From NCBI GenBank assembly GCA_973895155.1, contig OZ316892.1, positions 5,106,510-5,170,509 of the forward strand: a stretch of 64,000 bases of DNA, in the 5' to 3' direction. The DNA comes from Marsupella aquatica. Lineage: Eukaryota; Plantae; Marchantiophyta. The notes beneath the pieces were generated by a model that saw only the letters and a program-made list of their open reading frames with translations, had not been told where the DNA came from and did no database searches. Position 1 is the stretch's first letter; each line of letters begins with the position of its first letter. The translations under genes and the position numbers were made by a program. Shown in pieces: positions 1 through 56,700 of this stretch.

Positions 1-3000
1 CTTGAGCAATCTGCAAACTAAGTTCTCTTGGCAAGTCTTCATAAACCCTACTGGCTGTCTCATGAAGATCATCTCTTCCAAGTTGCCATAGAGAAAAGCA
101 GTAACAACATCCATCTGATCCATTACCAGACCAAAAATACAATAAACTGACACAAGATCCGAATTGTGGAATACGTTGCCACCAGTGGAAAGAGCTCATT
201 GTAATCCTCTCCTTTCTCCTTAGTGAATCCCTTGGCAACAAGCCTTGCCTTGTAGATCTTATCTCCACCCTCTGAAGGACTATCCTTCAACTTGTAAATC
301 CACTTGTTGTCCACCACTTGCTGATCTCTTGGAAGCTCCACCAACTCCCATGTCTTGTTGTGACTCAAAAATTGCAACTCCCTCTGCATTGTTGCATTCC
401 ACTGCTTCTGCTTTGAAGCACAAGCTTCACTGTATGAAAAAGGCTCTCCTTCTTCCAAGATCAAAGTCATGTCATCATCATCAGGTGCAATATCAATATC
501 ATCTAGCTTAGATGAGTCTGCCCATTGATCATACTTGGTAGGAGCTCTGGTAGAACGATTGGAAGTTCTTCTAGTAGATGACTCAGGCTGATCTGCTACT
601 GCTCCTGGTTGAATTTGAGGTACCCTAGCAACAATCTGCTCCTCTTGTTCCATCACAAGAACCGGCTCCAAGCCCGGAGCTTCTCCATCTCTCTTGTCAT
701 GAACAACATCATGACTAATCTTCCCCTCAACCCGGTCCGGGATGGGAGATTTTCCCTTGTCAGTATGGGAGTCCTGAGAACTCCCCCCCTCCTTTGATGA
801 TTTGGATTCATTAAAGGACACATCTCTACTAACAATTAGCTTACAGGTTACTGGATCCCATAACCTATAACCCTTCACGCCTTTCTGATAGCCAAGGAAA
901 ATGCACTTAGTTCTTTGACTTGGACTCTAGCTTGGATCGAAGCTGGGAAGGTGTAAGCACATATGCATCACATCCAAAAATCTTTAGATGTGAGTAATCT
1001 GGTGGATGCCCGTACCTCATTTCAAATGACATCTTGAATCCAATAGAACTGGATGGAGAAATTTACCAAATAAGCTGTAGTGTTGACAACTTCAGCCCAA
1101 AACTCATGTGGTAAGCATGATTGACTCAACATACTCCTTGAGCAGTCCAATAGTGTTCGATTGAGTCTCTCAAAAACACCATTCTGTTGAGGAGTATAAC
1201 TTGTTGTGAGATGGCGGGTAATCCCCTGCTCCTTACAATACGTTCCAAATTCCCCGGAACTGTATTCATCGTCATTATCCGATTGAAGATATCTCACCTT
1301 ACTACCAGTTTGATTTTCAACCTGGGCTTTCCACTCTTTAAAAGTGGCAAAAACATCAGACTTACTGTGTAGAAAGTATATCCACATATACCTTGAGTAA
1401 TCGTCTATGAACATGACATATTAGTATAACCATCCAGAATGTGAGGGAGTAGGGGCTGGACCCCATACATCGCTATGTACATACTCAAGTACCTCCTTGT
1501 TGGTGTGAGTTCCAACTCCAAAGGGTTTCCTGTGCTGCTTTCCAAGCACATAGTGCTCACAGAATTCCAACTTACAAGATTGCAAATTAGAAAGTAATTC
1601 TTTCTTCTGAAGAATAACCAAACCTTTTTCACTCATGTGGCCCAAACAAAAGTCCCACAGCCGGGTCATCTCTTCATGAGATAAGGTTACATTGGCTTCA
1701 TCATAGACTACACTGCCCTCCAAAATGTATAGATTATTATGTCGCTTTCCCTTCAATACAACTTTAGTACCAGTTAAAATCTGAAGGACACCATTAGCAA
1801 AACTCCACTGATAGCCATTTGCTTCTAGAACTCCAAGTGAAATTGAGATTTTTCATCATGCGAGGAATATGTCTCACATTCCTCAACGTTCTCACAACAT
1901 CATCAAACATCTGAAATCTAACAGATCCAAGTCCAACTACTTGACATGGGATTCCATTTCCCATCAACACTGACCCATTGGAAACTGTGTAAGAACAAAT
2001 CTCTCCTCGAGCAAATGTGAAAAGTACATGCACTATCTAGAATCCAGTCATCACTACCTGGATTTGACACTACGTTGAGAGCATAACCTTGGCATCGCAA
2101 TATGTCATCATGATCGAGCAAATCTACCTTATGCAAGCTCGATGCCGCGTTAGCTGATGCAGTAGGGTCCTTTACTCGACAATCCCTTTTCATGTGGCCA
2201 AGCTTGCCACATCTCCAACATGCAAGAGGCTTCCTCTCTTGCAATTTCCCTCTGGATTTAGATCTCTCCCGTGATGTAGATTGACTAAACCTGTTCTGCC
2301 CATTCGTGCATTGCGTTGGTCTTCCCATGTTCACGTTCAGCGCAGTGCCAGAAGAAGATGTTGTTTGTGATTGACCCAGCTTCTTCTGAGCATCATCAGA
2401 CAATAAAGAGCTCACCACCTCATTATACAAAATGGACTTTAGATCTCTACGCAAGAGCACCTGTTTCAAGCCCTGATATGACGGCGGTAAGGAGCTTAGC
2501 AGAAGTAAGGTCTTATCCTCATCTTCAACTCCTTTTCCCAAGTTTGACAAATCCACCGCTAAACTGTCAAACTCATCCAGGTGATCCTGCATCTTGCTCC
2601 CTTCCTTGAGCCTGAGGCTCATCAAGAGAAACTTCTTGTACAATTGGTCTGACGCATCTTCCCGGTAGTACTTCTCTCTTAGAGCCTTGAACAGTGACGC
2701 GCAATCCGCATAATCATCCAACTGCTTGATGATGTGCGGCTTGAGATAAAGCATCACTGTATTGACAGCAATCACCTGCTCCTGTCTCCACTGCTTCTCT
2801 GAGATCTCCTCCTCTCCATCATACAGCTCTCACGAAGAAAGCAGATGAGCTAAGCCCATGGCCCGTAGAACACTCTTCACTTGCTTCTCCCAGAGCAAGT
2901 AATCAGTATGACCATCGTACTTCTCCACCTCAAACTTCACTCCTCCAAATCTAGTCATCTCTCTTTCTTCCCCACTACTGACAGCTCTAGTAGTAGTACA

Positions 3001-3161
3001 GCTTCCTCCATTGCACGCCGCACCGGTGATTGTACAGGTGATACTTGTTCTTCCTCAAACGGTAGCAACTCCTCCTCAGACTCTCTGTTTGACCGTCGTG
3101 ATCCTGAAGTTCTACTGACGCCAATTCTTCCAGTATCCTCCGAGTCACTCATCTGAAACAA
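1..3161 (-). mobile_element. Ty1/copia LTR retrotransposon (Tnt1/Tork-like) gag-pol, frameshifted and truncated by the window edge
   Basis: Successive minus-strand ORFs give gag (DEDKTLLLLSSLPPSY, zinc knuckle CWRCGKLGHMKRDC), protease (WILDSACTFH), integrase (HSDVWGP, FIDDYSR, TPQQNGVFERLNRTL) and RT (NKTWELV, YKARLVAKGF). The order PR-INT-RT is the copia order. Several frameshifts and stops. Confidence 0.95.
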
Positions 3162-3689
3162 TCACAAAAAAAAGTCTTTTTTTGAAACTTCTCATAAAAC
3201 TCAAAACTCAACACTGCCGCATAGCCTACAAAGCTAGGAGTCCACTACTGAAAGCCAAATCAAAATCAAAATTCGACACAAAAGTTATTCAAATTTTGGT
3301 CGGGTGGGTAAAACCTTGGGAAACTCCCCCGTTTTGACCACCTCGGAGAATAACCAAAATACCAAGTACAACCCGTTGTCGGAATCTCAATGTGATTGGT
3401 GCGTCGTGTTGCCAACTTCAATGGCTACGTTTTCGCCCAAAAAGAACCAAAAAAGTTACCATTTGGCGGACGTAATCTTTGTAGGATGGCCAAAAAATAG
3501 CTCTCTATTTTTTGGGAATATTCCTGCACAATACAACAAATCTTATAGGGGGCCATTCTGCCTGTCAAAGCGGTTAAAATGGAGGGTCACCAGTCCCGGG
3601 ACAGCCAATAGCATCAAACCGGGAAAAAACAAAAAATGGGCCCTTAAAAGGGGGGTTTAAGCCCTTTTAACTAAAAATATTGTGTATAA

Positions 3690-3735
3690 GGACCGGGATC
3701 CAACGTGCGTATGATCACTATATTCATTAAAACTG
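3690..3735 (+). repeat. Left terminal inverted repeat of the large DNA transposon
   Basis: Inverted match to 16459-16528. Confidence 0.75.
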
Positions 3736-3967
3736 TACTTTTAAAAGTCCATAAGATGAACCCTAAAGTTGTTTTTTTTCAGGCCAAATTTCTATTAAAG
3801 CATTCCCAAAAGCTAATTTTTTCAGCCCAAATATACACTTTTGAATGCCCGAAATTTTGTTTTTTTTCACCCAAATGTTTAATAATAACTTAAATCATAT
3901 ATTCTAATTAATTTAAAAATTAGAGTAAATCTGATTTAGTCCAAAAATCAGAGGCCAATACCACTCA

Positions 3968-3999
3968 GACCATCTATAAATTAAAAAATATAGATGGTC
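3968..3999. other. 11-bp-stem hairpin downstream of the cargo gene
   Basis: GACCATCTATA-(AT-rich loop)-TATAGATGGTC is a perfect inverted repeat. Confidence 0.6.
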
Positions 4000-4178
4000 A
4001 TAAATCAAGGGTCAAAATGAGATTGATCCACTGTATAATTATTAAATTGTCCAGTCCAGTGAGAGAGCCTCACACTAAGCATATCCTAATTATTTACTTT
4101 ATCCTACATGTTCAAAACATATCATTTGACATAATATGAATGTACAATTCAAGGTAGGCACTAGAACAACCCTATCTC

Positions 4179-5217
4179 CTAATGATCAAGACAAAACTCA
4201 TTTGAACAAGAAAGACTGCTTCCTGATTTATCATAGCGTATGTCACGGTTGCAAGTATCTCTCGCATGGTGGTTCTTAAACTTATTGGTGAAATTCCTAG
4301 TTCTGAGAACTTTCCAAATAAAATGCCTTCTATTTTGTCTATGAGGACCAGAATAGTTGTCTCCAAGTATTGCGTTTGTAGTTTCTTCGATCTCATCCGT
4401 GGTCCACGTCTCCAGTGGTGGGTAATGCTGCACCTCGTTCTTTCCGTCCCAAGGAATCTCTTCAGGAGTCACATCCAAGATGGTTCCAAACTCCTTATGG
4501 ATACAACGACAATCTCCCCACTTCTGTTCCAAAAGAGCATAGATGGCAGCATGATCCTCCTTGCTTGTTAATAAATTGAAAACAGACCACTTTGGATTGT
4601 TGACAGTGATATAATGTTGAACACAGTAAGCCTTTCTCAATTTGCAAAGATACGGCCATAATATCTCGGGCAAAAAAGTGTCATTTGAAGCTGTGTGAGT
4701 AAATGGATTTGGAAACAATCCATTCACGTCATAATTCAAAAATGCCTTCAATGGAGAATCATCAATAAGAACTGTATTAGAAGCATCATATTTTTTTGGA
4801 AAACGATCCCAAATGGTTTGCAAATTCTTCAGAAGTAAATTGGCCTTCCCATCTGTTATATCTGGCCTTTGGATGCAACTATCAAAGGTATCTTCTTGAG
4901 TAAAGACAAACTTGAACTTCTGTCGCTCCTCCTCAGTGAAAATCAACTCCATTAAGTCCATTGTTTTTGGCCTCCTTGCACAGGTCCAAATTGCGACGTC
5001 AAAAACCATGAAAGCTGCATATAGAAATTCGTGGAGGTATGGGTGCTCCACATACATGAAATTAAACCCTCCACGTCTCCCCCAGTGCACACCACGTAAA
5101 CTTGTCTGATTTCGCCATGGTCCTGAGCTTCTGGTCTTAATGCAATCCCAACAAATCTTGTTAAGGTCAAGAACCAAGAGCTTCGCCGGATCGGAGAGTG
5201 TAGTATTGGAGTGAATT
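4179..5217 (-). CDS. FCP1/NIF-like HAD phosphatase domain; probable last exon of the transposon cargo gene
   Basis: Motifs KLLVLDLN (HAD motif I variant), HPYLHEFL, FDVAIWT, LLKNLQTIW, NTVLIDDSPLKAFLN. Candidate acceptor ttttaatgtttccag immediately upstream. Confidence 0.8.
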
Positions 5218-5559
5218 CTGGAAACATTAAAATAAGCCCTTAGTCAATGCGACTCAAAGTTTAAACAATTACTACAGAGGAAAACTCTCAAAATTTGAAA
5301 TCAAACAAACTTTGTTATAGCATTTGAAGTAGAGAGGAATGACCCTGGGGCGACCCTCCTAGAAAAACATTAATTACATTTTTAGATCCAAAGTATACCT
5401 GGGTCAAACCCTTCCTCCACAGCAACGCTTTCCGAGGGAATGCCAACAAAATCCTTTGAGGAAGGAGATTCTACGACGGAACTTTGGTCTATAAAAAAGT
5501 ATATTATTACAAAGATAAAGCTTAGATTGTCATTAAAATACCAAGAACCAAAGAAAGGG

Positions 5560-7884
5560 CTAATAATTTCCAATGCTAAAATGCCCAAATTCATCTATTG
5601 TTTGATCACCTAGAACACTCTGTATCTCGGAATTGATACCACTGGGAAGTTGCTCTTCAAAGGATGGGGGTGCAAAAACTGGGCTCAGTCTCAAGTTCAG
5701 TTTTTTGTAATCTGATTTTGCCATTATCTTTGGAGCATCGTCTAGTGATTCTATCATTCCAACCTTTGGTCCATTTCTCCATATAAAATGAGTTGCAGGA
5801 CGGACTATTTTCATATATCCAGTCCTGCCAATCTCGGATCCAGAATTTTGTGAAAATGATAATACTACGGGGCTTCATGTAGAAGCACTTGTAAAAACCA
5901 ATTTAGTCTCTAATGAGCAATATAGAGGAGACAGGGGAGGATTTGAAGCACCTGCCTTCTCTTCTTCATTTGCAGCGGTCTCAGGTACTTGACGATCATC
6001 CTCCTTTGCAAGCGCAATGTCTGACATTTCTCCCAATTCTACTGCATCAATATTGCCTAGATCATCTGCGGTTGCCTTCCAATGTGCGTCCGATGTGGAC
6101 GATGTAAGATCTGGGTCCGACTGGTGCATCCAATTCTCTACACCGACAAAGGGATTTCTTGGTGGGTCGCCCTCAGGTCGACCCACAACATCGGCCAACC
6201 CCACACCAAAGTAGGGAATACCTACCACTTGTGTTCCACGTTCATCCAAATTTTGGGTGACCCTATCGTCTGTGTCGTGATCCAATTCTCCTTCCTCAAT
6301 CTCATCTTCGCCCTGGTCTACGCCTTCTTTGGCGCCAACATGCTCGGAAACCCCATCGCGGGCTCTACCAAATTTGGAACTGCCCATCCGGTCACTCATT
6401 ATGGAAGGAACTTTCTTGCAGAGAACCCTTCCATATGCCTGAGTGAAATCATATTCATCCTTAGTGTCTGAATACGCAAAGCATTCTCTGAAACACAACA
6501 ATGACACCTTCATAACCTGTCCTCCCGAGAAAAAGTCAAGTATAGTCTCCCCTTCAGCCAAAAAAAATTCAATAATACTCTACAACATACATTTTGGCTT
6601 AGCGTGAATATTCACAAAGCCACCTCTACTTCCCACCATCTCAAACATGGGAGCCTTTTGTAAGAAATCTCCAATGTGAAATGCCGAAGTTGACTCAGTC
6701 TCTGTCTCCTTACTTGTCTTACTCTTATTCTTATCTCGCTTCTCCGTCTTGTCTTCCACTTGGAAATTAGGGTCGATCGCCGAATTGTAAGAAAATTGGC
6801 AATTAAATCCAGGCCTGAACACTTGCTTCCAATCAAATTTCTCCTCAGTGGTGATTCCTGCAAAGATTATCTCCTCCATACCACAACTGAAAAGTAAGCC
6901 CTCTAGAACTGGTGTATCACTCCGTCGATAGCTCCCGTAGTCAACGTGGATGTCCATTCCCTTTTCATGTTGCAATTTCCTAAGGGCACTCAAAATGTTT
7001 GCAGCAAGTGGCCCCGGATGCACAGTCATGACAACAACAATTGTTGGATTTCTTGGAAGATCCACAATGTATTGCAGTAATGCAATAATTTCAGCATCGG
7101 TCCAAACATGTTGTCGGAGCCTACTGAAGTCAACAATGGCAAGAGGACACAAAGGCGAAGGCTCTTGTAGCATTTCCGGCACGGTCGTCTTCATCAAATT
7201 ATCACTAAAAAATATCAAGAAAGGCTCCGTGCGAGAACGACCAATCCCACCAAATTCTTTACAATACAACCCATCTAGTCTGACCATCAGACTTTGTGGG
7301 AAACTCTCCTTGACCACATTCTTCTTCAATGAATTGTTGAGGTAAACCTCAGCCACTGCTCTCCTCAATTTTGTCATCTCAAGCTCAGATTTCAAGGAAG
7401 GCAACAATATCACTAGAGACTCCCAAGATGTGCCAACAGGAAACTTCTCACGATACTTTTCCATGAAATAGCCAATAATGACTGTTCTCAATTTGGACAT
7501 TATCTTGATTGTAAGGGCCAAGTCTCCCATTGCGACAAGCTCTGATTTGTTGGTGATATCCTTCTTCAGCAAGGCACGCTCCTCTTCAACGTCCTTCAAG
7601 ATCTCAATTATCTGTTTGCTACTAATCTCTCCTTCAAAGCATCGAAAGGTACCGGGAGTGATCAATTTTGGGGGTCTTGGCCCTCCATACCCACCAGCCC
7701 CGTCTTGGAGCTTCCCACTCAACCATTTTGCACACACGTTCCGCCATAATTCAAAGAGCTCATCTTCGGCAAAAAGTAACCAATAAATGCTCTTTAGGCT
7801 TGACTTCCCCATTGTAACCTTTGCCAGGGCAAACCAATCCTGCATATCCAATGGACTTGACATTAGTTTCAGGGTACAATGCAT
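5560..7884 (-). pseudogene. Cargo gene middle part: beta-class (N6/N4) DNA amino-methyltransferase-like domain plus acidic linker; in-frame stops at 6580 and 5875
   Basis: ORFs 6580-7884, 5875-6561 and 5560-5814 share one frame. Reading through the stop gives VNIHAKPKCML*SIIEFFLAEGETILDFFSGGQVMKVSLLCFRECFAYSD, which resembles the HPTQKP..L...I...S.EGD.VLDPF.GSG......GR..IG.E consensus. The putative motif IV position reads LAIVDFSR instead of DPPY/SPPY. Confidence 0.65.
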
Positions 7885-7925
7885 ATGTTAGAAAATTTAT
7901 ACCTATGTTTGAAACAGGCTAAGCC

Positions 7926-8105
7926 GCCTCGCCCCAAGGGCGTGGCGAACCTCTACATCTAACCGCAATTGACTGAAATGGAACTAGGGAATTATTCTTA
8001 GAGAGACTAGTCTAGGTTGCCTTGCCCTCAGGGCGAGGCAGACATTTGCTTTAATATTCTAACCAAGGAAAACAAGACAAGGCAGCCTCGCCCTTGGGGC
8101 GAGGC
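7926..8105. repeat. Three dispersed copies of palindrome GCCTCGCCC-N3-GGGCGAGGC in a probable intron
   Basis: Copies at 7926, 8019 and 8085, between ORFs 8191-9435 and 6580-7884. Confidence 0.9.
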
Positions 8106-8190
8106 AAACCTCTACCACTGGCAATCTTTAAACAACGCGGATCAAGAATAGTTTACGTTGCTCCAATATGTACATGATAGTTTTTCCTGT

Positions 8191-9435
8191 CTATATTTTG
8201 ATTGGTCCAATCCCTGGACGCGGCGGTTTCCCGCACTCCTCAAACTGCCTACGTGCATGAACAATAGTCTCTAAAAAACAAGACTTAAATTGCATAGTAT
8301 CATTGACAGCACTCGATAAACTTGAATGCTCAACCAAAATTGTCTTCGGAGTGAGGTCAGATAGGATCCTTGCTTTCCTATACTTTAGTTTGTTGGCAAG
8401 ATCTGTCAGCTTGGCGTCAGTCTCGGCCCACCCTTGGATCCATTGGGCAGCTCTTGCAGAATGCTGGCCACTGATGGCAAGGAATTGGATCTCATGCCTC
8501 TTCACACCAATCAAAAACTCTTTCCTATCCTGAGGTGTGTTGTCATAATGAAGCAACTGTTTAGTGCTCTCGCGATACGGAATCAAATCAGCAACTTGTG
8601 GTTCCTGTCCAGGGTTTTTCATCATAGACTTTGATATCTCCATTGCATGCGAAAGATTGAACATTCGATATACAAAAATGGCTGATGGCAGAATAATACT
8701 TTTTACAAGAATATCAAAAACTTCGCGGATGCCAAAAGTATAATACTGCTCAATATTACGCAAAACCTCTTGGCCTTTGAGCACATCATCTTCTTTGTGT
8801 CCTTCTGTCGGACACATATCATCCTCTGGATGCAAGACAAAGTTTGAAGTCGACGCTGACATTGGTTTTGATTTCGCAACCTTTGCCTTCTTTGTGTGCT
8901 TTTTTTGGGGGCCCTCATCATCTTCATTTTTTTTAGCCATCTTCTTACGGCGTGAACTCCCAGATTGTTTCTCTTGTTGAACAACCGGCTCTCGAAGCTT
9001 TCGTTTCTTCTCTGTCTTTGATTGCGCGCTTCTTTCCACTGTCTTCTTTCTCTCCTTTGCCTTATGCTTTGCTTCTTTTTTCTTCATCTCTGAAATCCAC
9101 GTCCGGCACGCGGCCTCTTGAAACTCTGGACAAAAAATGAAACTCTTGTCGATTGCTTGCTCGTATGAAAAATGTGCCTTCTCAATCATCCTTTGAACTA
9201 TCCAAGTAGACGGAGGGTCCACACTGTTCGCATTGTCATGCATGTGCTTCTTTACGTAGAGAAATCCAAACACTAGGTTAACTCCACTTATTTGAGAATG
9301 CGTCTTCTCAAACATCTGATCAATTGTTACTCCATCTGGGAAGAATCCCATATCAGCTATGCTTATCTCCAATCGAGCCATCCACTCAACATTCAGTAAA
9401 GTCAAGTAGAGTTTTATTGGCACCAGAAGTCTCAT
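8191..9435 (-). pseudogene. Cargo gene N-terminal part: Lys-rich low-complexity region plus ParB/Sulfiredoxin-like domain
   Basis: 414-aa ORF containing VYRMFNLSHAMEISKSM...FLAISGQHSARAA, resembling the ParB/Srx R...l..s...(I/V)xGxHR motif. A probable first exon lies at 10634-10466 (MSTSSSSEAS...FPR, GTAAG donor). Confidence 0.6.
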
Positions 9436-9770
9436 CCACTAAGATTTCTCATTGGACTCAACAATAATTGTTGCATTGCGGTTGTTGTCCGTGTCACAAG
9501 GACGACTGGACCTAGAGTAACAATTGTCTTGCGGTCATTCAATTGACTTGTGAGGCCCTTGAAACAAATCAAGAGACTGCCTTTCGCCGACACCCAACTT
9601 CTAGTGCCCATCTAAATCCTGGAGTATCTTGGTCAGGGAAAACAAAGTCCTTGATATCCTCATCCATAATATTTAACTCCGGCTTCTCAAGATTTTTTCT
9701 TGGTAAGAAACATTGAAAAAAATGGTCAACATCATATTTTTAACATTGACATGTGGAAAACTTTCAAGGT

Positions 9771-10438
9771 GCCTCGCCCTTGGGGCGAGGCGACAAATAG
9801 AAGATTGCAAAAGCTTCTTTGCTCCTAGTGCAATTAGCCCTGCCACCTCATCCAAGCAATCAAACATTATTTAGGAATGCAGACGACATCGCCTCGCCCC
9901 AAGGGCGAGGCAACTTCTGGGAAAGCAAACAACATTTAGGAATGCAGACAACATCGCCTCGCCCCAAGGGCGAGGCAACTTTTGGGAAAGTAGACAACAT
10001 TTAGAAATGCAGAGGACATCGCCTCACCCCAAGGGTGAGGCAACTTCTGGGAAAGCAGACAACATTTAGGAATGTAGAGGACATCGCCTCGCCCCAAGGG
10101 CAAGGCAACTTCAGGGAATGCAGACAACATTTAGGAATGCAGATAACATCGCCTCGCCCCAAGGGTGAGGCAACTTCTGGGAATGCAGACTACATTTTAG
10201 GAATGCAGACGAAATTGCCTCGCCCCAAAAGCGAGGCAAAAAATAGAATATAGCTAAAGATCCTTTATTAAAGTAAGATACAAGGTCCAATATGCCTTCG
10301 GAGCAACAAAAAATCTAGAATGAAGTAGACGTCGCCTTGACCTTGGGGCGAGGCGACTGCAAAGGAATATAGAAATTTTCCTAATAAGAAGTTTGAAATC
10401 CAAATTAAAGTAAAGTTGCCTCGCCCTAAGGGCGAGGC
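9771..10438. repeat. 65-bp tandem array (~5.7 units, 9871-10240) plus flanking copies, each carrying the GCCTCGCCC-N3-GGGCGAGGC palindrome
   Basis: Palindromes at 9771, 9891, 9956, 10021, 10086, 10151, 10217, 10334 and 10418. Unit: TTAGGAATGCAGACGACATCGCCTCGCCCCAAGGGCGAGGCAACTTCTGGGAAAGCAAACAACAT. Confidence 0.95.
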
Positions 10439-11787
10439 AAGAAGTTGAAGCAGGTGGTGCCTTACGTGGAAAAGTTAACTGGGCTTTCTTTGACGCCTCC
10501 AACGCATTGTTAACCAATTTTTGGACATCCGGATCTTTAGGGTCATATTCATACAGAGAGTTATAATTGAAGTTCAATGACTCTTCAGAACTGGCGGAGG
10601 TGGTGGAAGCTTCAGAACTGGAGGAAGTAGACATTGTAAGGGGCGAAAGAGATTTAAGATGACACATGGCAGCAATGGAGAATGCCACAGGCTGCAAGAG
10701 GGCACTAACAGGCAAACAATGATCAATGGAGCGACCCAAAAGAGAAGGGAGCAAGGCGGAAATAAAAGCCTTAGAGCAAGGCGAAAACAAAAGCCCAAGA
10801 GCGAGGCAAGAGGGAGGCAAGGAGTGAGGAGACGAGAGAGGAACCCGGAGAGGAGGAAAGAGAGGAGGCAAGAAGGAGGCAAGGAAATGAGGCCTCACGC
10901 GCAAGGCCTGCCTTCCTATACCCCCTGCGAGCGAGGAGTCTAAGGAGGCAAGGATCCGAGAGGATACGGAGGCATCAATGCGCGCCAATGATGGAGATCC
11001 TCCTCGCTGCATGTGCTCGTGAGTCACCTGTGATGGTGTGACCACTCACGACCACTCGCGACTCACCTACCAATTTTAAACTTCCAAGCTGTCAGCGGTG
11101 TGCGCTCGCAACTCACCTATCACTCATGAGTGATTGGCTGACACCCTATCCGATGTCTACTTGTGTGCTGGGTGCGTGCCTGATCCACCCGTGCCCGATC
11201 TGTTGGTGTCCACTCGTGTGCTGGGTAATGTGTGGGCTTTTTGCCTCTCAAACTGAGTATAGACCTCCCACAATCCATTTTTTGGTTCATTGTCATTTAG
11301 ACAGTGATTGGTACGGTCATTGACTCTCCTCTGTCCAAGTGCCTTGTTTAGGTCCGCATGGTTGAATGCAAGGTTTAGTAAGGGCACTGGTGAGCACTGT
11401 GGTGCTAAGAGTTACAATGCTGGCATCCTAGGTACCCATTTAGCTTGTACAAGGGTGGGTAGAGATATATTGCGGAGCAGGTTAGTGATTTTATTTATTT
11501 ATCTTAGAAGTAGTAGCTCAATTGCATCTAATTCAATACCTTTAAGCCAAACCTAGATTAAGATTTACACATTAGGTTCTAGATCATATATTTTACTCAT
11601 TTCTAGACTTTTATCCACACTCTAGCATGTGTAGAACTTACTGTACCCCTTTGTGTGATTACTAACATAGTTTCTAGAAGTGGGTCGGAATTATTTCGTG
11701 CCGACCTGACTATGTCATCTTAACTAGCATTTTAATCTGGTATATAAAAGCATAAGCAAGATAGTTTCACGAATAGTTTTGACATAA

Positions 11788-12110
11788 TTTCAACTTAATA
11801 GTTGGAGTAGGGTCAAAATAATTCTGACCCAACTTGTCAATGTTTAGTAAATTCAATCATTTTAAGACATATTGTTGGAGGAGGGTCGAAATAATTCCGA
11901 CCCAACTTGTAAATGTTTAGTCAATTCAATCATTTTAAGACATATTGTTGGAGGAGGGTCGAAATAATTCTGACCCGACTTGTAAATGTTTAGCCAATTC
12001 AATCATTTTAAGACATATTGTTGTCAGAGGGTCGGAATAAGTTCGACCCAACTTGAATGTGTTTAGGGTTTTGAGTGATTTTACAATATTTTTTGGAGGA
12101 GAGTCCAGAT
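11788..12110. repeat. 73-bp tandem array (~4 units) with palindrome GGGTCG-AAATAATTC-CGACCC
   Basis: GGGTC cores at 11810, 11883, 11956 and 12029 (exact 73-nt spacing), with a degenerate copy at ~11682. Lies just upstream of the acceptor ttgaatacag at ~12168. Confidence 0.93.
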
Positions 12111-12181
12111 TTTGAAACATGATTGTAACATGGGGAACTTAACAATTTCTAACTTTATTTGAATACAGATAGTCCGCTATC

Positions 12182-15100
12182 ATGATCAATTTTACACGAG
12201 GGGATGAAGTGCAATTGGTGATCGATGGATTTGAAACGGCAATTGGGATAGTTCAAAAGGTTGACCCCCAGGATACTATACAGAACATTTGTCTAGGGGA
12301 TAATCGAATTGGGGTATTGATCGAAAAGTGTTTTGATGGATCGCGTCAACTTCCATTTCCTTCACCCAAATTTTCTACATTGGCTGAGGCAATTGACTCC
12401 TGCGTGATTTGGGATTGTGCATTGGCATACTTGAGGTCATCAACTCAGTGCCGAAGAATCAATGTCGATAATTTCTCTTTGGCTGGAGATGTTGGAAATG
12501 ATAAATCCAAAATTGATGCAAGGGTTGAAGAGGACGTGTTCAAGGAAGGAGATGAAGTTCAGATGTTCATTTTTGATCAGTTGGTTGCAAATGGAATCGT
12601 TTTCAAGATAAATCCGATGGATATTTGTCATACTGAAAGACTCGGGGTTGGTCGCATCAGTATAAGAATATCTGATATTGTTAAGGGAAATCAAAAATTG
12701 CCATACTCGCACCCTGGAGCTGATACAATAGAAGAGGCCTTGCATACCTGGGTTATCTGGAATGTTGCGCATGTTTCTAGAAAGGGCACTCTACAAGATT
12801 TTGGCATGTTTGGTAGTTCAAATATTTTCAATGATCTTCCATTAAAAGATTTTACACTACGTTCCAACTGGATGGCGGAGGAGGTTGATTTGTATGACGC
12901 TTCTCGTTGTCGGAAGGTTGCAACAGGTGTTATCACGGTCCCATTTGAAACAGGTGCCGTTGACGATGAACTTCTTGGTGCAGATCATGTTGGTGTTGCT
13001 GTTGTGAATATCAATGAACCCGGATTATTTCCAAATATCCGTGTGGGTACCCCTGACTTGGTGAGGTGGGAAATCAAATCCCTTCTATTGATTTTGTCTC
13101 AAAGGTTTCTTGGGGATATCCTTGAGGAAGTTTTAGAGAAGTGGATGGAGTCGGGTCGAACTAAGGGCGATCCGGATTCAGATGGTGATGGTAAACCTAC
13201 AAAAAGACCATACAATTTCATTAGGAGGACAAAAGTTGATCTTGAGGAGAAGAAGAAAAGGCATTTGGAGTCGAGGGCACTTTTGAAAATTACCGAGGAG
13301 TCCATTGATTCCATCCAAAGAGAAGGTTGTTGCAAGCTGAAGTGTTGCTTGAACATGCCCAGGGAGGACTTAGAGGCAATGAGGAGGGAATACCATGGAA
13401 TGTCAAGTGACAACAAAACAAGTCACATCTTTAGTCTCTTTGGGTGTCGAGAGGAGCAAGTCAAGAGAAAAGGATTTTTTGTTCTAAAGGGACGTGTGGT
13501 TTGTAAAGATGCATTTATTAAAATGCATGGGTTCAGTACAACAAAGTACTATGACTACAAAAATCAATACAAAGCTGGTTGCACAATTGGTTTCCATGGA
13601 AATCAGGGACAACGGAAGACATGATCAAGCACTTTGCACGCTCACGCCTTGTTGGAGTCCATTTTAATCCAAAATAGGGAACCAATGCCACATCTTCCCT
13701 ATGGTGGGTCCAACGGCATTGACACTATTGAATATCGGCTCCCATCTTGTTTTACTAAGAAGGAGATTTTCCAAGAGGTGTTTACCAAGATGGAATTAGA
13801 TGGGTTTGCTAAGGTTACTGAAGTTACTATGTACAACATCTGGAAAAACTCATTTGATAATTTTGACTTTCACAAGGGAAGTGCATTTGCCAAGTGCACA
13901 TTTTGCACTGAGTTCAAAGATCAATTGATGCGGGAGAAGAGAAAAAAAGAGCGTGCAGAGATTGAAGAGAAAAGAGCGCGACATCTTCGTGAACAAATGT
14001 CAAGAAGATATGTTTACTATGCTCATAGGGTTCTTGCAAAAAAGGATCCTCAAAACTATCTTTGCATTATTCACGATAAGATGAATCAAGCCAAGACTTG
14101 GATCCCCAGGTTGGTCCCCACTCCAAAATCCCTCTCTGGTAGTGGTCAGCCTTTGCCTATTGCTCTTACTGGGATGTTAACCCATGGAAGAGATCTTGGA
14201 GTGTATGCACATTTCAGTTTGACTGGACTTTGGCCTGGAGATGCAGACTTTATCGTGACATCTTTGGCCAAATGCCTCCGAGATTTGGAAGATTACACAG
14301 GAGACAAAACTGGAGACCTTCTTGAAGGATTGAATTGGAATGCAACTAGGCCAATATTTCAGTCCCTTCAAGACTTTGAAGCATTTTTGGCCGGTTACTT
14401 GGAACCCAAAAATGTTTCAATTGTTCGATTTCAAGGCATTGAAGATGGTCAGGAGACTAAAAAGTCAGGCACAGTGGATGTTGGTTCTAAGGATGATCCT
14501 GAGACTACTAGGGGCTCTTTCAAGCCCTTACCAAGGCACCTAACATTGCAGATGGACAATTCAGGGAAAGATAACAAAAATCAATATGTGATGGCATTTT
14601 TCACTGAGCTTGTTAGCAGGGGGTGTTTGAAACTGTGCAAATGTCATTCCTCATGGTTGGCCACACCCATGAAGACGTGGATGCATTATTTTCTCAAGTA
14701 TCCAAATAGGTTAGATACAAAGAGGTTGCTACCCTCTTGGGGTTGATGGCTGAGGTTTGGGAGTGTGAAAGCATTCATCCTGTACCACGATTGATTCAAG
14801 AGGTTGCATCTTACAAGGAGTATTTGAAAACTTTCTAGGTGAAAGAGATAGAAGGTCACTCAAAACCAGTGGCATTTCTTTTCTCCATGAGGGATAATGT
14901 GCCAGTGTATCAATATAAAGCACATGTCAAGCAACCTTGGCTTCCGGCAATGGGGAGGTCCATTTGGAGAACTGATCCCATCACAAATGCGCTCATTTTA
15001 CCGGAAGGCCAACCATTTGCAAAACCTATATCTGGGGATGTACAAAAGAAGGCTGGAGAAATCATCCCATTCCTTAATCGCTATATTGATTTCTTGAGGA

Positions 15101-15884
15101 AAAGTTGTAAGGATGAGACCTCTACAGCATATCAAGAGAGATTTCCTCTGGTCAAATATTGGGAGAATCTTGTGCAAGCACTGTCCGAGGAACTTACAAT
15201 AGAAGGGGAGGGGGAAAGACAATTGCCATTGACAACTGATTTTTGGCCAAAGACTAACCATGGCACAGGTTACAAGATGATTTTGGGACATCTCAGCCGT
15301 CAAGTGAACCTTCTCAAAATCTAGAGATGATGGACCTTCAAAATGAGTACATGGAAGAGATGGAAGATCAAGCTACACCCTTTGTTGGTGCACGACAAGA
15401 GCGAGAACCTGCACGTTGGATTCCTCTACAAGATATTCAAGAAGGTCACTTTGTATTTTTACGTCTAGAGGATGAATGGGAACAGGAAAATGGCAAAGGG
15501 CATTTCTGGTTGGTTCGAGCTTTGGGTGGTGTGGATCCAAACCATGAGGTTCCCTCAACAGATTTGCAACATATTGAAGGGTCTTCTTCAACGTCTGTTG
15601 AGAGGAATGCTCCTATGTTCCAAGTACAATGGTGGAGGCCTAAACATGGTAAGCATGATGCAAAGGATGATGTTCGATATGAACGTTGCTTTCAAACCAC
15701 TAAGACTTGGGAGCTGGATCCTGGGTTTGACAATGTTACTCAAAGTTGGCAGTTTGCAAATTCTACAATGTATGGGTTTAAGTCAGGTGCTAAAGAACAA
15801 AATATTATGGATAGAGGTTTGACAATTCCTAAGAATGTTTTGAAAACTCTCAAAATTTACATGGAAGGTATAATTGATGAGTAG
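12182..15884 (+). pseudogene. Sola-like (DUF7869-type) DDD transposase with three N-terminal TNP1/Transposase_23-like repeats and a C-terminal SH3/Tudor-like domain
   Basis: Motifs CCKLKCC, VCKDAF, CTFC...H, IIHDKMNQAK, LQMDNSGKDNKN and, after a frameshift near 14620, MSFLMVGHTHEDVDALFS at 14641. In-frame stops at 13622 and 14836. Repeats of the form VAxGxV...LG...V.I....LP....TL.EA....V.W occur in the 12182 ORF. Confidence 0.85.
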
Positions 15885-16458
15885 ATTGATAGAACTCGTA
15901 GGTTACAAGTCTCCACTCAAATGACTTGTGATTAAGAGGGTCGAGTTGATTTCCATGCGTTTGTCTAAAGTGAGAGAACAAGACAATCAAATTAATACTC
16001 TATGATCTCTCAAAGTTATTGAATGGACTTTCTTATAATTATTATTTTATTTGTCTTAGTATATTTTAATTCTAGAAAATGATGTCATTTCATTCCTTCT
16101 AGTCTAGTAGGTTGGATATCATCCTAGTTAACTTTGTCTAGACAATATAGTCATTCGATTGTATTGGTGCTTAGTTAGATATCTTACTCAAGCTAAATGT
16201 TTTGAATATAGATGCTATTCAAGCTTATATGTTATTACTAGATTCTATCTAGTTTCCAACCAAATGAACACTTTTATCACCCAAATGTTTTTTAATATCA
16301 TCCAATTTAATATTTTATTTTCCCAAAATTTCATTTTTTGTCCCCAAATTTACATTTAATGATGCTTGAATTTTCATTTTTCATCTTCCAAACTTACAAT
16401 TTTCATGCCTAAAACTATGTTTTTAAATCGCCAAATTTCCCTATATCCTTTATAATTT

Positions 16459-16528
16459 CAGTTTTAATGAATATAGTGATTATGACCGGGGGCGTACTCG
16501 GGCGACGGCGTACGTTGAGTGTCGGGCC
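16459..16528 (-). repeat. Right terminal inverted repeat of the large DNA transposon
   Basis: Inverted match to 3690-3735, with ~25 extra nt between the two matching blocks. Confidence 0.75.
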
Positions 16529-16531
16529 ATC

Positions 16532-16569
16532 TTAGCTCATGAGTCACAAGACTAGAGCAATATCTAACA
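16532..16569 (-). mobile_element. 38-bp stub of the 5' end of a copia LTR
   Basis: Reverse complement TGTTAGATATTGCTCTAGTCTTGTGACTCATGAGCTAA is 37/38 identical to the start of the solo LTR at 17189. Confidence 0.85.
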
Positions 16570-16733
16570 GTTATGGTGCATTCTAGTATCACCAGGACTT
16601 TCTGGTGATAATGGTGGGTTAACCATTGACAGGACATGTACAAAGACTGTACCACCTGTTCAAGAAAGTGTTGGCATTAATTGGCACAAAGTACTTGCCT
16701 ACAAACTCCTGACTTTTGCAGGAAATTCCTACG

Positions 16734-16889
16734 GACAACTTCCGGGGCAAGGCTGGGGTGACCCCTCAGCGTTCTGACCACACCATCTCCCAACCTACTA
16801 AGGATGTCTGCAGACAACTTCCGGGGCAAGGCTAGGGTGACCCCTCAGCGTTCTGACCACACCATCTCCCAACCTACTAAGGATGTCTG
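16734..16889. repeat. 79-bp direct tandem duplication
   Basis: GACAACTTCCGGGGCAAGGCT...AAGGATGTCTG at 16734 and 16813. Confidence 0.95.
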
Positions 16890-16919: not shown

Positions 16920-18115
16920 TGCTATATAGCAGTTTCAAATGTGGAGAATCCAACTTTCATGTTTTGTCTTATTCATATTTGTGTATCATGTATTTTATTT
17001 TAATGTATCTTAACAAGGGGCATATTTTGTATCACATAGACTTTTAATTCTTTTTTAGACCCCTTTAAATTTTTGGTATCCTATAGTATTTTGGATTTAT
17101 TTTGGCAGCCCCCTTAAATTTTTAAACTTTGTTAAGTCCTAGAGCTATATAGCAGTTTCAAATATGGAGAATCCAACTTTCATGTTTTTGTTAGATATTG
17201 CTCTAGTCTTGTAACTCATGAGCTAACCATAGTTAGGCTAACTCGGGTTAGGACTTAGCTAATGTTAGCGGTAGTGCTGTTGTTGTAGAGGTTAACTCAC
17301 TCAGTCTTGGGTTGAACTATGGTTAGTATATTAACTAGGGTTAGAGTAAACCCTTCAACTTCTATGTGGTGTGAGAACACACAAGAGAGTTCTCAAGAGA
17401 GAACATAGTGATATAGCAAGAGATGAGAGCTTGAAGAGATGAGAGCTATGGTGATGCTTGAGTAGACACATCACCATTAATAAAGCTTGGTCTTCCCGTG
17501 GACGTAGCCAACCTTGAGGCGAACCACGTAACTATTGAGCACGTGTATGTTTGGAGTGTTTTTCCTGATCTGATTTCTCCCCACAGTTGTGAGTATAGCC
17601 AAGGCTGATGCCAGACCCTGGTGAAGCTTAGGCTCATTGTTACAGAGCTAGTTGAGAGATAGAGAGAGCTTGTGCTGTGGATGCTTGGTATGGCCGGTCG
17701 GCCTAGAGTGCAGTAAAACTCTTGTGTGTTCCCGTGGTCGTAGCCTCATGTGGAGGTGAACCACATATTTCTCTGTGTTGACTCTTGTGCGTTGGATGGT
17801 TCATGGGCTTGCAGTTGCGAATGTCGTCTATGCTCAACAATTTTGTCTTATTCATATTTGTGTATCATGTATTTTTATTTTAATGTACCTTAATAAGGGG
17901 CATCCTTTTTGGACCCCTTTAAATTTTTGGTATCCTATAGTATTTTGAATTCATTTCAATTTTGTCTTATTCATATTTGTGTATCATGTATTTTTATTTT
18001 AATATACCTTAACAAGGGGCATCCTTTTTGGACCCCTTTAAATTTTTGGTATCCTATAGTATTTTGTTTTTATTTTGGCATCCCCCTTAAATTTTTAAAC
18101 TTTGTTAAGTCCTAG
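16920..18115. repeat. AT-rich ~120-220 bp direct repeats interrupted by the solo LTR
   Basis: TTTTGTCTTATTCATATTTGTGTATCATGTATTTT...GACCCCTTTAAATTTTTGGTATCCTATAG recurs at ~16961, 17841 and 17960. Confidence 0.85.
17189..17839 (+). mobile_element. Solo LTR (651 bp, copia/Tork-like)
   Basis: TG...CA termini. Near-TSD GTTTT/ATTTT. The empty site catgttttgtctta is present in the neighbouring repeat copy. Two CGTGG.CGTAGCC...GAACCAC motifs typical of plant copia LTRs. Confidence 0.88.
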
Positions 18116-20699: not shown

Positions 20700-23600
20700 T
20701 CCGGAATCTTTTCGTTCGAGGCGGAGCGGAGCGATCCGGAGCGGAGGCGGAGCGGAGCGGCAGCCGGGGTCGGGCGGAGCGGGGGAGCAAGTGAGTGGCA
20801 AGCGGGTCGGATGAGCGGAGGTCGAGCGTGGCGGGGTGAGCCGGGGGGCGCGGCTGGGCGCTGACACGCTGCGGGTGCTGACGCATGGCGGACCCAGGGA
20901 GGGGCATGCGCAGGGGCCCTTTTATGGGGGGCCTCATTACGAGGGACCCCTGGCCCCTCGGGGAGGGGCTCCTTCCGCCGGGGTGACCCTCGGACCCCCC
21001 CCCCCCCTTCCTCCTTACCGGGATTTTAGTGTGGGTTGTTGGCCCCTGGCTTTTCATCCCTGGTTCTCCTCTTTCGGTGCTCCTCGAACTGCATTTCCGT
21101 CTGCTGGCTTTGGCCCTTTGGGGGCTGTTTTCCGGGCCTCGGCTCTGTTTGGCGAGAAGGTTTTGGTGCTTGGGAGCCTTCTCTGCTGGTTGGATTTATG
21201 CTCCAGCCTGGTGACCGGCTCTGGCCTGGTCCGGGGTCTGGCACTTTTTCTCCTGGCTCTGAGCCGGGGTTGGTTCGTGACCTGGGGGAGCACGTTGTGG
21301 TGTGGCTTCTTGGTGATCTGTCCGGAGGGGGTGCCTCCGCGACAGCTTCCCTTGCGCGGGGCTGCGGCGGACCTTTTCGACGTGTGGTTGTTGTCACTAC
21401 CGGGTCGAGGTTCTTTGCTTTGGACATCCATCCTTTGCTTTGGTTTTTGTTGTCGCTTTCGTAATAGTTTCTGTTTGTTTTTGTTTGACTTGCCTACTTT
21501 ATATGTTTCTTCTTTATCCTTGTTTTATATTTTCATTTTCATTTTCTCATGGAGCCTCTTCCCATTCTGAGTTCCCCTCCCCCCACTCCACGCCCACCGG
21601 CTTCCCCCTACTCCACCCCTCTTTCCGTCCGTCGCCATCGTCCCTCCTCACCTCCCACTTCCCCATCTGATCCCCGTGTCCAGTGCGATGCTTGTCATAG
21701 TTGGTACCGGCCGTCAGGTTTGACGCGCCACCGTCGTTCCTGTCCTGCCCTTCGTGCTTCCTCCTCCACCTTGCCTCCACCCCCCGCCCTCCCCCCACCT
21801 CCATCTGGGCCCCCTCCCTCCTCTTGGGATTGGTTGGCTCACCTTGATGTCCTTGCTGCCCTCTATCCCGGTTTTTGGCATCCCCGTTTGTTTACTAGGA
21901 TTCCCGTGCCTGTGCGGCCTCTCCTTCAGAGAGCCTTTCGTCTTCCCTTCGACCGCTTGGCACGCGACCCCTCAGATGTTGGGGCTTGGTCCTTGCTCCT
22001 CCTGCTCCCTCATTGGGTGCTGGTCCTTCCTCCACGGGGGGGGGGGGGGGCATCCGGGCATAGGGAGACCTTGGTCCGGTTGCAGTGGTTCCTTTCTGGG
22101 GATTGGGCTTCGCTTCATGAGGAGTATTACCATAGGTTGTTAGCGATGGCCTCTCGGACCTCTGAGCCTGTCGAGGAGCCATCTGTCCCTCCAGTGCAGC
22201 GCAGGCTTCGCCAATGCCTTCTTTTGGGGCAGGCTGGGGAGTTTTCTCGGGCCGCCCGCTCCTTGGTCCCCCTCTCCCCCTCTCCTCCATCAGCCGAGAC
22301 TGTTCTTGCCTTACAGTCTCTTCATCCCCCGGCTGCATCCGAGGTTCCTTGTTTTCTTGGGAGCTTTACCCCAGAGACCAAGTTCTCCCTATCCCGTGAG
22401 GTGTTCTCCTCTATCTTCCTTCATCTGCCCCGCCTATCCGCGGGCGGGATTTCTGGTATGAGGTTCGAGCACCTACGCGATTGCTTTTGTCCCGACGACT
22501 CGGCATCTGGTTTTTCTGAGTTGTTCCAGGTCTGTGCCCATGTTGCGGGGGGTCGTATTCTTCCTGTGGTCGCTCGGCTTTTGGGGGCCTGTCGGCTTCT
22601 GGCTATGGCCAAAGAGACTGGGGTTGTCAGGCCCCTGGCCATCGGGGAGGTCTTGTTTCGCTTGGTGAGCCGTACGTTGTGTTTGTCTGCAAACTCGGGC
22701 TCCCTTTTCATCATACTTTTTTCCTCACCAGTTTGGTGTGGCCACCCCTGGCGGTTGCGAGAGTGTGGTGCATGGCCTTCGTGCCATCTTGGATATCCAC
22801 CCCGATTGGGCGGTTATTCAGGTGGATGTGGCTAACGCATTCAACTCTGTATCCCGACGGGTCATGTTTGAGGAGTTGTGGGCCGCTGGAGGGGAGATCG
22901 CATCCCTCATCCCCTTCGCCCAGGCCTTCTATGGGACCCCGACCCCCCTGGTTTACCTTGACCATCTTGTTCCTGGGTCCTACGTGACCATCTCATCCGA
23001 GTCCGGGACTAGGCAGGGTGACCCCCTTGGTGAGGCGTTGTTTGCTATGGCGCACCTTCGTGCTATTCGTGCCTCTTCGGCTGCCTTCCCGGGCTGCATG
23101 TTTCCTTCTGTTGCGGATGACACTCACATTGTTGCCCCGGTCTCGCTTGTTGGGGACGCCTATTCCCACTTTGTGGACCAGCTTACCCTCATTGGCCTTT
23201 TAGTTCAGCCTTGGAAGTGTGGGGTTTGGTCTCGTCTCCCCCTCCCCCACTCTTTCACCCCACCTCTTGGTATACCCATTCGGCTCGAGGGCATCCGAGT
23301 CCTTGGGGTGCCATTTGGGGGAGCGGTCTTTGAGCAGGATTTTCTTCTAGCTGCCCTGTCCCAGGACATATTGCATATTGACCAGTTGACGTCCTTGGGG
23401 GATGCCCAGATCTCCTTTTTGATCCTGGTCCTATGTTTTGTTCGGCGTCCTTCCTATCTTCTCCGGACTGTCCCTCCTACCGCGATGTTCCTATCCTTAC
23501 TCTCTTCATTTGACACCACTGTGATGAGAGTCTTTGGTCACCTCATTGGTCCGGGAGCCCTTGATGGAGAGGATGGTTCTTTTGCAGCTAGGCAGGCTGC

Positions 23601-24830: not shown

Positions 24831-25198
24831 GTTTGATATATAGATTCTTTCCAATCGTCGACAGATTTCACCTTGATATTGTCGACGATTGGAAATTAAG
24901 AGCCAGGAACGCAAAATCTGACGAGTCCCGTTTCGGTGATTTCGAAACCGTTCTCACGTTGTTTTCCACTCGTCGGGAGATTTCGCCTTGATAGTGCATC
25001 TGCATCTGTTAACCTTTTTCATGCTCGTAATCAGCTAGACGATTTGGCCCAAAGGTCCGACTTCGTGATCAATGGGTTTTGACAACTGCACTTGCTGTTA
25101 GGTTCTTTTCTGTATCGGATCACCCTCATCACGGCGTTAGGGCTGTGCTCTTCGAAGGCCCGGATGTGTGCAGCATTCCTATCTAGAGGGAAAATGGA

Positions 25199-56399: not shown

Positions 56400-56700
56400 C
56401 TAGAATTTAACAGATTTCCTTAAATCTAGGGGGATCTGACTGTCAAATTAATAGGAAACTTTGCCACGGACCCGATTACCTATTTAACAGATTTCCTTAA
56501 ATCTAGGGGGATCTGACTGTCAAATTAATAGAAAAATTAGCACAGACCCCGTCGCCTACAATTAACAGATTTCCTTAAATCTAGGGGTATCTGAGTGTCA
56601 CATTAATACGAAAATTAGCCACAGACCCCATCACCTAGAATTTAACAGATTTCCTTAAATCTAGGGGGATCTGACTGTCAAACTAACAGGAAAATTAGAT
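56400..56700. repeat. 77-79-bp tandem array, 4 units
   Basis: TTAACAGATTTCCTTAAATCTAGGGG-ATCTGA at ~56407, 56484, 56562 and 56642. Confidence 0.93.

Follow-up and report, generated by a model that had tools for sequence, protein, structure and literature searches.

A 64-kb stretch of Marsupella aquatica DNA (contig OZ316892.1, hereafter the window) contains at 3690..16528 a 12.8-kb transposon with inverted ends, in which two divergent genes are arranged around a GC-rich spacer together with two private palindrome arrays. The plus-strand gene encodes a transposase and the minus-strand gene a cargo protein with a ParB-fold part and a methyltransferase-fold part, followed by an FCP1/UBLCP1-like module. 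In all three cargo domains key catalytic residues are missing: the Box II Arg is found in 0 of 56 aligned rows, the PP of motif IV in 0 of 30, and there is no DxDxT. At even chances, we propose that the cargo product is a non-catalytic, sequence-specific, self-targeting DNA-binding regulator of the element's own promoter region. This proposal follows from the internal, CG-containing, family-specific arrays beside a ParB-fold gene and from the loss of catalytic residues in domains that are nevertheless conserved. Since none of the three domains keeps its catalytic motif unaltered in the family, enzymatic methylation or dephosphorylation of the RNA polymerase II C-terminal domain (CTD) by the cargo appears unlikely. 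Feature coordinates are collected in Table 1.

Palindromes were counted allowing at most three mismatches, with 100 shuffles as control. Palindrome 1, GCCTCGCCC-nnn-GGGCGAGGC, was found in 12 copies within 7926-10438, three of them in the cargo intron outside array 1, and palindrome 2, GGGTCGGAA-nnn-TTCCGACCC, in 5 copies within 11682-12049. For both, 0.00 copies were expected from the shuffles and none were found outside the element in the 64-kb window. The palindromes differ in sequence; both contain CG, have a 9-3-9 layout (21 bp) and carry a TCG-N9-CGA core. Array 1 probably falls within the cargo gene's first intron, and array 2 probably within a 5′ intron of the transposase gene. Both are internal, flanking the spacer away from the element ends, and the spacer likely acts as a bidirectional promoter. 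The original prediction had described imperfect terminal inverted repeats (TIRs) bounding two divergent units with a GC-rich spacer and one array each, and repeat, GC and palindrome counts agree with it. Separately, a hybrid palindrome with array-2-like GGGTCG arms and an array-1-like CCCTCAG centre was observed at 6162-6186, in the sequence coding for the acidic linker of the cargo.

Cargo homologs were collected using HMMER over 1.84 billion representatives, resulting in 180 at E <= 0.001 (clusters at 50% identity), 150 of them listed, while word-indexed searches returned just one relative each. The ParB domain was unrecognised by Pfam, NCBIfam and a profile search of PDB sequences, and the window's own ParB and methyltransferase open reading frames (ORFs) had no Pfam match (N6_N4 at E 0.14 with stops read as X), so that both identities depend on homologs and a model. 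Structure modelling of the cargo, as proposed in the original prediction, was carried out with AlphaFold2 (AF2); using a 56-row alignment, the ParB region reached a predicted local distance difference test score (pLDDT) of 94.2. With this model Foldseek gave no match at E <= 0.001, and the best 31 ranks displayed were all ParB, Noc, PadC, KorB or Sulfiredoxin (Srx) proteins (best E 1.7e-3, probability 0.94-1.00). In VIA-align, 16 of 48,161 chains had Z >= 2 and the top 10 belong to the ParB/Srx superfamily; the best row had Z 7.7 (root-mean-square deviation (rmsd) 5.5, 127 residues aligned) and PadC had Z 7.5 (rmsd 3.1, 98 aligned). By this model the domain has a ParB/Sulfiredoxin fold. At the site of the Box II GxxR motif GQHS is dominant and the His is invariant. 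In ParB-fold proteins an R-to-A exchange at this site abolishes NTP binding (bioRxiv 2025.10.10.680097).

The intron separating the ParB and methyltransferase exons recurs among the homologs: on the ParB side 37 of 49 ORFs end at this place (8173-7840), on the methyltransferase side 21 of 26 begin at it, and the single-ORF homolog P0239 resumes at 7839. Both parts occur together in 7 of 154 homologs, namely five Riccia gene models and P0094/P0239, which form one cluster.

A 48-row profile of the methyltransferase part matched M.RsrI (E 1.5e-8) and M.MboIIA (E 0.027). Pfam N6_N4_Mtase was matched by 19 of 66 homologs hand-picked from 148 new ones, six of them over the curated cut-off. By these profile matches the region is homologous to beta-class N4-cytosine/N6-adenine (N4C/N6A) DNA methyltransferases. 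Motif X-I lies at the C-terminal end, and motif I reads DFFSGG in 14 of the 25 rows having letters there. The putative motif IV, positioned by motif order and a predicted strand, reads mostly D-F-[STA]-R. An AF2 model of this region (6-row alignment) was poor (pLDDT 46.6), giving no Foldseek match at E <= 0.001 and an uninformative VIA-align result, with a Nudix N-terminal domain as best row (Z 7.5); the ESM Atlas held no usable match to the methyltransferase ORF.

The same motifs bear on whether the cargo might be an active, non-canonical N4C/N6A DNA methyltransferase, targeted by its ParB domain to the arrays and marking the element's own DNA, an idea already put forward for the algal elements. 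Motif X-I (KP...DFFSGG) and the motif-IV Asp (27 of 30 rows) are kept in proteins that are 30-50% identical; the comparable Ectocarpus protein is predicted to make N4-methylcytosine (4mC) or N6-methyladenine (PMC12477816), and a prokaryote-type 4mC methylase is in use in a liverwort (bioRxiv 2021.02.12.428880). However, all 30 rows lack the PP-aromatic motif, which in the active Marchantia enzyme is present as TSPPY (bioRxiv 2021.02.12.428880), and motif I is one residue shorter than the M.RsrI loop. We consider catalysis of this kind quite unlikely and retain the non-catalytic regulator.

The haloacid dehalogenase (HAD) domain downstream corresponds to Pfam NIF (E 8.1e-15, 55.3 bits versus a cut-off of 21.8), with UBLCP1 as nearest solved relative (PDB 3shq, E 2.7e-9). 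FCP1/SCP CTD phosphatases carry the catalytic motif DxDx(T/V); motif I reads DLNK in the window, and DLNG and GING in two copies at L047, a distant locus described below. The FCP1-like domain was absent from 154 of 154 cargo homologs, and P0239 (1009 aa) finishes at a conserved E[YF]GS tail that may be a real C-terminus or an exon end. Ahead of the FCP1 exon lie small exons with canonical signals, plus an ATG. Judged from these signals, the exon could either close the cargo gene or form a gene of its own. The minus-strand order given earlier (ParB, methyltransferase, linker, FCP1) was thus recovered from homologs, folds and the Pfam NIF match, while placement of FCP1 in the same polypeptide was not (0 of 154 homologs). 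The domain identities behind the formerly proposed self-targeted chromatin- or transcription-modulating module held, with catalysis unlikely in view of the altered motifs.

The plus-strand unit matched Pfam DUF7869 (E 2.4e-14) and could be aligned, in three frames, along the entire intact relatives P0006 and P0058 (1250 and 1300 aa). Among 2484 candidates 49 transposase relatives were obtained, several of them intact at 1000-1334 aa. HDKM, CxxC and LTGM.HG were invariant in 22 of 22 chosen rows, with D-N and GHTHED kept where present; the DDD triad is a putative one, assigned by motif alone. HDKMN, MDNSGKDNKN and GHTHEDVD, named on the plus strand in the original prediction, were all located, across one stop (~13622) and two frameshifts (~14620 and ~15280). 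At the N-terminus repeated domains are present together with PF26133 (precomputed annotation), and two relatives match Transposase_23 (E 2.2e-8 and 0.043), a domain of the TNP1/EnSpm family. The transposase profile found no solved structure in the PDB. The TIRs, the size and the fact that Sola elements occur in moss make membership of the Sola superfamily plausible (PMC10741241). The ends start with GG and are thereby nearer to GGCGG of Sola2-1_Ec32 than to AACCG of Sola1-1_Ec32, so that they do not fix the Sola subgroup.

The repeated N-terminal domains and the two Transposase_23 matches also suit a different assignment, in which the arrays are sites of the transposase and the accessory (cargo) protein is a transpososome or targeting cofactor. 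CACTA TnpA and the Harbinger Myb partner offer a comparison. Array 2, which differs from array 1, stands immediately before the transposase exon, and transposases can act as sequence-specific activators (bioRxiv 2026.08.24.746577). On the other hand, neither array is subterminal, palindrome 1 is confined to the span of the cargo gene, and in red algae ParB genes adjoin inverted-repeat arrays in elements with an unrelated transposase (bioRxiv 2025.02.11.637652). Taken as a whole this assignment seems rather unlikely, and the arrays are treated below as candidate sites of the cargo protein.

Scanning metagenomes with the transposase alignment gave 218 confirmed stretches, of which the best 80 loci were retained, representing 58 distinct sites. 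At 26 sites the upstream flank measured 5 kb or more; eight of these carried cargo pieces there, on the opposite strand: five had FCP1 only, two ParB or ParB plus methyltransferase, and one all of them. L072 and L073 are sister copies, so the eight sites may represent seven independent ones. As a downstream control, 1 of 19 sites with at least 5 kb downstream was matched; this match (L036) was rejected as spurious, corresponding to a transposase-proximal repeat inside the L031 query. At L047 the order is N-terminal piece, ParB (SGQH), helical region, methyltransferase and two FCP1 domains, and tandem FCP1-like domains also occur at L031 and L049. DIHY was considered as motif IV of L047 and dropped, since the profile alignment puts it upstream. 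The cargo of L047 and that of the window were colinear over 564 columns (hhalign score 42.9, E 1.7e-4, probability 49%; 15 shuffles <=22.4), which is moderate support; with ParB alone the profile comparison was weak (score 23.3, E 0.009; 20 shuffles <=15.6). BLAST of the window cargo against the 80 loci returned one weak FCP1 match and nothing else, so the link to the distant clade required profile comparison.

In a tree of 32 rows (midpoint root), limited to the relatives found in this analysis, the eight cargo-bearing transposases formed a clade (100/99), and the window clade, taking in three Riccia rows, stood across the root (98/95). Window termini and palindromes had no meaningful DNA match in the 80 loci. 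The eight distant sites have arrays of their own, made of 45-49-bp units, which precede the transposase by 1-4 kb and contain a different palindrome; this palindrome had 136 matches in 247 kb upstream versus 15 in 161 kb downstream. In the L013 and L021 family an array is also found upstream, yet L013 has no cargo in 10 kb, so either some families never had the cargo or its loss is frequent. Nothing was detected when metagenome and viral contigs were scanned for the cargo, nor when viral contigs were scanned for the transposase.

Several further observations were made at these loci. L002, L004, L016 and L018 represent intact DUF7869 families in which repeated palindromes, each family having its own sequence, closely precede the transposase. 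At L026, L036, L058, L062, L072 and L073 there are extended telomere-like (AAACCCT) arrays, degenerate in sequence and 4-9 kb upstream of the transposase; at L072 and L073 they stand between transposase and cargo. At L008 (1-3880) the transposase folds back near 2105 into two opposite arms, either by palindromic rearrangement or as an assembly artefact.

Sequencing runs were used to compare other copies of the element. Eight runs were listed, six of them containing the stretch, from four studies, and none was recorded as RNA. Four runs (three organisms, three studies), which had been selected through containing this stretch, were compared; each covered all 30 bins and had contigs over both genes. 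Single-contig depths in X1 were 515 for FCP1, 480 for the methyltransferase, 474 for ParB, 421 for the spacer, and 517 and 509 for the transposase, with two further contigs of low depth (12, 37). These matching depths are consistent with co-amplification of both genes. The earlier view of a cargo-carrying transposon family, with the minus-strand gene travelling alongside the transposase, is borne out by the X1 depths, the colinearity of L047 and the eight of 26 upstream sites. Named relatives of both genes come from the liverworts Riccia sorocarpa and Calypogeia fissa. In UniRef two Riccia cargo models go under other names, P0191 as 'DNA methylase N-4/N-6 domain-containing protein' and P0231 as 'Nucleolar protein 6'; both are probably transposon cargo.

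Alternatively, the cargo could be a passenger or a separately mobile cassette between the ends, of no use to the element. In keeping with this, 18 of the 26 distant sites are without detectable cargo, 0 of 6 named Riccia cargo models are adjacent by locus tag to the 20 named Riccia transposase models (cluster representatives only), this copy has no target-site duplication (TSD), and algal accessory genes move between superfamilies (bioRxiv 2025.02.11.637652). A passenger is nevertheless very unlikely: side, strand and domain order agree between two transposase clades that the midpoint root separates, contig depths match, and intron position and motifs are conserved across 180 clusters at 50% identity.

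The copy in the window is decayed, as had been stated originally. The reading frame of the methyltransferase exon is interrupted at 6580 and 5875-5877, and the stop at 5877 is Gly in all four runs. One-base insertions at 5181, 8206, 9493 and 15284 were seen in two to four runs (among the rows listed), and HDKMN of the window is HDKMD in other copies. The lesion comparison covered 40 out of 1155 rows for substitutions and 12 out of 79 for indels; within it, stops and frameshifts were mostly private to this copy. X1 contigs differed from the window by ~0.6-2.1% in five of six long pieces. A deamination-like excess was present in the window copy, with 279 places where others have G/C versus 128 in the reverse direction (X1, flanks included).

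With the cargo as a non-catalytic regulator, the element could work as follows. Both genes would be transcribed from the GC-rich spacer. The accessory protein would bind the palindrome arrays as a dimer, probably via the helical region that a low-confidence model places after the ParB domain; in bacterial ParB the helix-turn-helix (HTH) is located after the ParB domain. The methyltransferase fold would serve as a DNA- or S-adenosylmethionine-binding scaffold without methyl transfer. Once bound, the protein would shield or open the CG-containing arrays and the promoter against host cytosine methylation, allowing the transposase to be expressed and to cut at the inverted ends. The FCP1/UBLCP1-like module, fused or separate, would be a phospho-protein-binding adaptor rather than an active CTD phosphatase.

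A number of points weigh against this proposal. The two arrays differ in sequence, and one protein may not bind both; the transposase itself could bind them, given that transposases can be sequence-specific activators (bioRxiv 2026.08.24.746577). The only candidate HTH would lie in the helical region of low model confidence. Motif IV was located by position and by predicted secondary structure in the poor model (pLDDT 46.6), and the M.RsrI alignment spans profile positions 157-270 only. Among the distant loci, the 18 sites have no cargo piece within the flank examined, L013 (10 kb upstream) included, and the upstream and downstream palindrome counts relied on a motif derived from those very loci. 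Finally, none of the contigs listed reaches across both genes, and depth cannot be read as a copy number.

The two ends of the element form an inverted-repeat core of 35 nt (3711-3745 / 16449-16483) that is 89% complementary in the one copy examined. The outer 20-nt ends at 3690 and 16528 match at 14 of 20 positions, a value attained in 4 of 300 shuffles, and the right arm has ~24 additional bases between the outer part and the core. No TSD of at least 3 bases was found at this copy at any boundary shift of +/-6 (left ATAA, right ATCT). The right flank (16532-16569) is an inverted copy of the first 38 nt of a sequence resembling a long terminal repeat (LTR), matching 17189-17226, and the left flank runs into a copia element. 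Insertion into the 5′ LTR with an adjacent deletion could be the reason for the absent TSD, and the present flanks may not be the original target site.

Table 1. Features of the element, in window coordinates.
Feature	Position	Strand	Remarks
Left terminus	3690..3745	+	Outer 20 nt (GGACC...) and core 3711-3745
FCP1/UBLCP1-like HAD exon	4179..5217	-	Motif I DLNK, not DxDxT; IDDSP kept; ATG at 5227
Putative small exon	5399..5488	-	Canonical acceptor and donor; between methyltransferase and FCP1 exons; predicted from sequence
Cargo exon	5560..7839	-	Helical domain, beta-class amino-methyltransferase fold (putative motif IV DFSR; motif I DFFSGG), acidic linker, conserved DEFG tail
Cargo intron between ParB and methyltransferase exons	7840..8173	-	Position common to homologs; 3 further copies of palindrome 1
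Cargo exon	8174..9698	-	N-terminal domain, Lys-rich linker, ParB/Srx-fold domain (~8790-8200; Box II GQHS)
Palindrome array 1	9760..10440		65-bp tandem unit, 9 copies of 9-3-9 palindrome
Putative first coding exon of cargo	10460..10670	-	Ser-rich, acidic; predicted
GC-rich spacer	10650..11150		53.9% GC versus 42.1% for 30-64 kb of the window
Palindrome array 2	11680..12066		73-bp unit holding another 9-3-9 palindrome (5 copies); precedes the transposase coding exon
Transposase pseudogene (~1230 aa)	12182..15884	+	Repeated N-terminal domains, CxxC, HDKM / MDNSGKDNKN / GHTHEDVD core (DUF7869)
Right terminus	16449..16528	-	35-nt core and outer 20 nt (GGCCC... on the minus strand)

Outside the element, a decayed copia element occupies 1-3200 on the minus strand (Pfam gag, zinc knuckle, integrase and reverse transcriptase), and its upstream region had very high depth in four of four runs. 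A solo LTR is suggested at 17189-17589, other copies passing at 17589 into primer-binding-site-like sequence. The region 20700-25500 is GC-rich and T-skewed, with an ORF for a reverse transcriptase resembling that of long interspersed elements (LINEs) at 22669-24759, and an immune-receptor-like gene with NB-ARC plus LRR lies at 26772-29506 on the plus strand. The copia element, the LINE-like reverse transcriptase and the NB-ARC/LRR gene identify the window as plant nuclear DNA. Near-perfect tandem duplications were noted at 16729-16889 (79 bp), 17838-18066 (119 bp), 54456-54928 (234 bp) and 56388-56698 (80 bp).

Combining these lines, we tentatively suggest, with the balance somewhat against it, an old and widespread giant DUF7869 lineage in non-seed land plants. 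Its cargo would be a pseudo-enzyme three times over (its ParB lacking the nucleotide switch, its methylase the catalytic loop and its CTD-phosphatase-like domain the DxD motif) that recognises its own intronic, family-specific palindromes and couples recognition to the host transcription machinery. Transposon escape from host methylation has been shown experimentally in few systems, and what has been proposed for the algal ParB-methylase accessory genes is hypothetical, in organisms for which tools are scarce. The present family moves the design to land plants, with liverwort gene models, intact relatives, defined 21-bp palindromes and a prediction of binding without catalysis. Dozens of liverwort gene models labelled 'hypothetical' or 'DNA methylase N-4/N-6' are probably transposon cargo.

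The original prediction knew of no description of this combination, but the design is in print for Ectocarpus Sola1-1_Ec32 (PMC12477816) and for red-algal Plavaka elements (bioRxiv 2025.02.11.637652). Sola1-1_Ec32 is a 21.5-kb Sola1 element of a brown alga with an opposite-strand ParB plus N4C/N6A methyltransferase gene, for which self-modification was hypothesised, and the best match of its transposase was given as Sola1-1_PPa (PMC12477816). Compared by description, both are giant DNA transposons with imperfect TIRs and a ParB plus amino-methyltransferase gene opposite the transposase. Sola1-1_Ec32 differs in having AACCG termini, a 282-bp TIR and a 4-bp TSD, where the present element has GGACC/GGCCC, a 35-nt core and no TSD, and the accessible parts of its account mention no FCP1-like domain, palindrome arrays or altered catalytic motifs, all of which are present here (PMC12477816). 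In the Bostrychia preprint, ParB-bearing PAG3 beside inverted-repeat arrays and methylase-bearing PAG2 led to a self-targeting hypothesis (bioRxiv 2025.02.11.637652). There, however, the transposase is of the EnSpm/Plavaka type and ParB plus 2OG oxygenase and methylase plus SET are separate genes, unlike the single ParB-methyltransferase protein followed by an FCP1-like module found here.

The Sola superfamily, characterised by DDD-type motifs of which this element has putative counterparts, shares with it TIRs, occurrence in non-seed plants and a size range in which some members exceed 15 kb (PMC10741241). The cargo has the same ParB/Srx fold N-terminal to a beta-class amino-methyltransferase as prokaryotic and phage ParB-N6N4-methyltransferase fusions and as ParB, Noc, KorB and PadC proteins, and such fusions are likely its ultimate source; unlike them, it contains introns, lacks the Box II Arg and the PP-aromatic motif, and has a long helical insert and an acidic tail. 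A TSD of 4 bp is usual for Sola and was not seen at this copy. The FCP1-like module resembles FCP1/SCP/UBLCP1 phosphatases in its NIF domain and kept IDD motif, and differs in motif I (DLN, not DxDxT), in having no ubiquitin-like or BRCT domain that could be seen, and in its location in a transposon. Eukaryotic ParB-associated methylases and inactive DIRS methylase domains have been described (PMC4738411), and retrotransposon DAMs are covered in bioRxiv 2026.05.21.726589.

No land-plant or FCP1-bearing ParB-methylase transposon was found in the literature searched, most subscription papers and Repbase Reports being beyond its reach. As far as these searches reach, three things are new: the land-plant lineage, the FCP1/UBLCP1-like module with its conserved placement, and the fact that catalytic motifs have been lost throughout the family. 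The functional model proposed here is that of VANDAL/VANC in Arabidopsis, a transposon-encoded accessory protein acting on repeats in the element's own non-coding regions; VANDAL has been named as the sole system known to bind and modify its own sequence (bioRxiv 2025.02.11.637652). VANDAL elements are Mutator-like, VANC is an unrelated protein and its activity has been shown, whereas activity here is a prediction. If the triple pseudo-enzyme acts as suggested, plants would have, besides VANC and independently of it, a second anti-silencing system, one assembled from components of bacterial segregation and restriction-modification.

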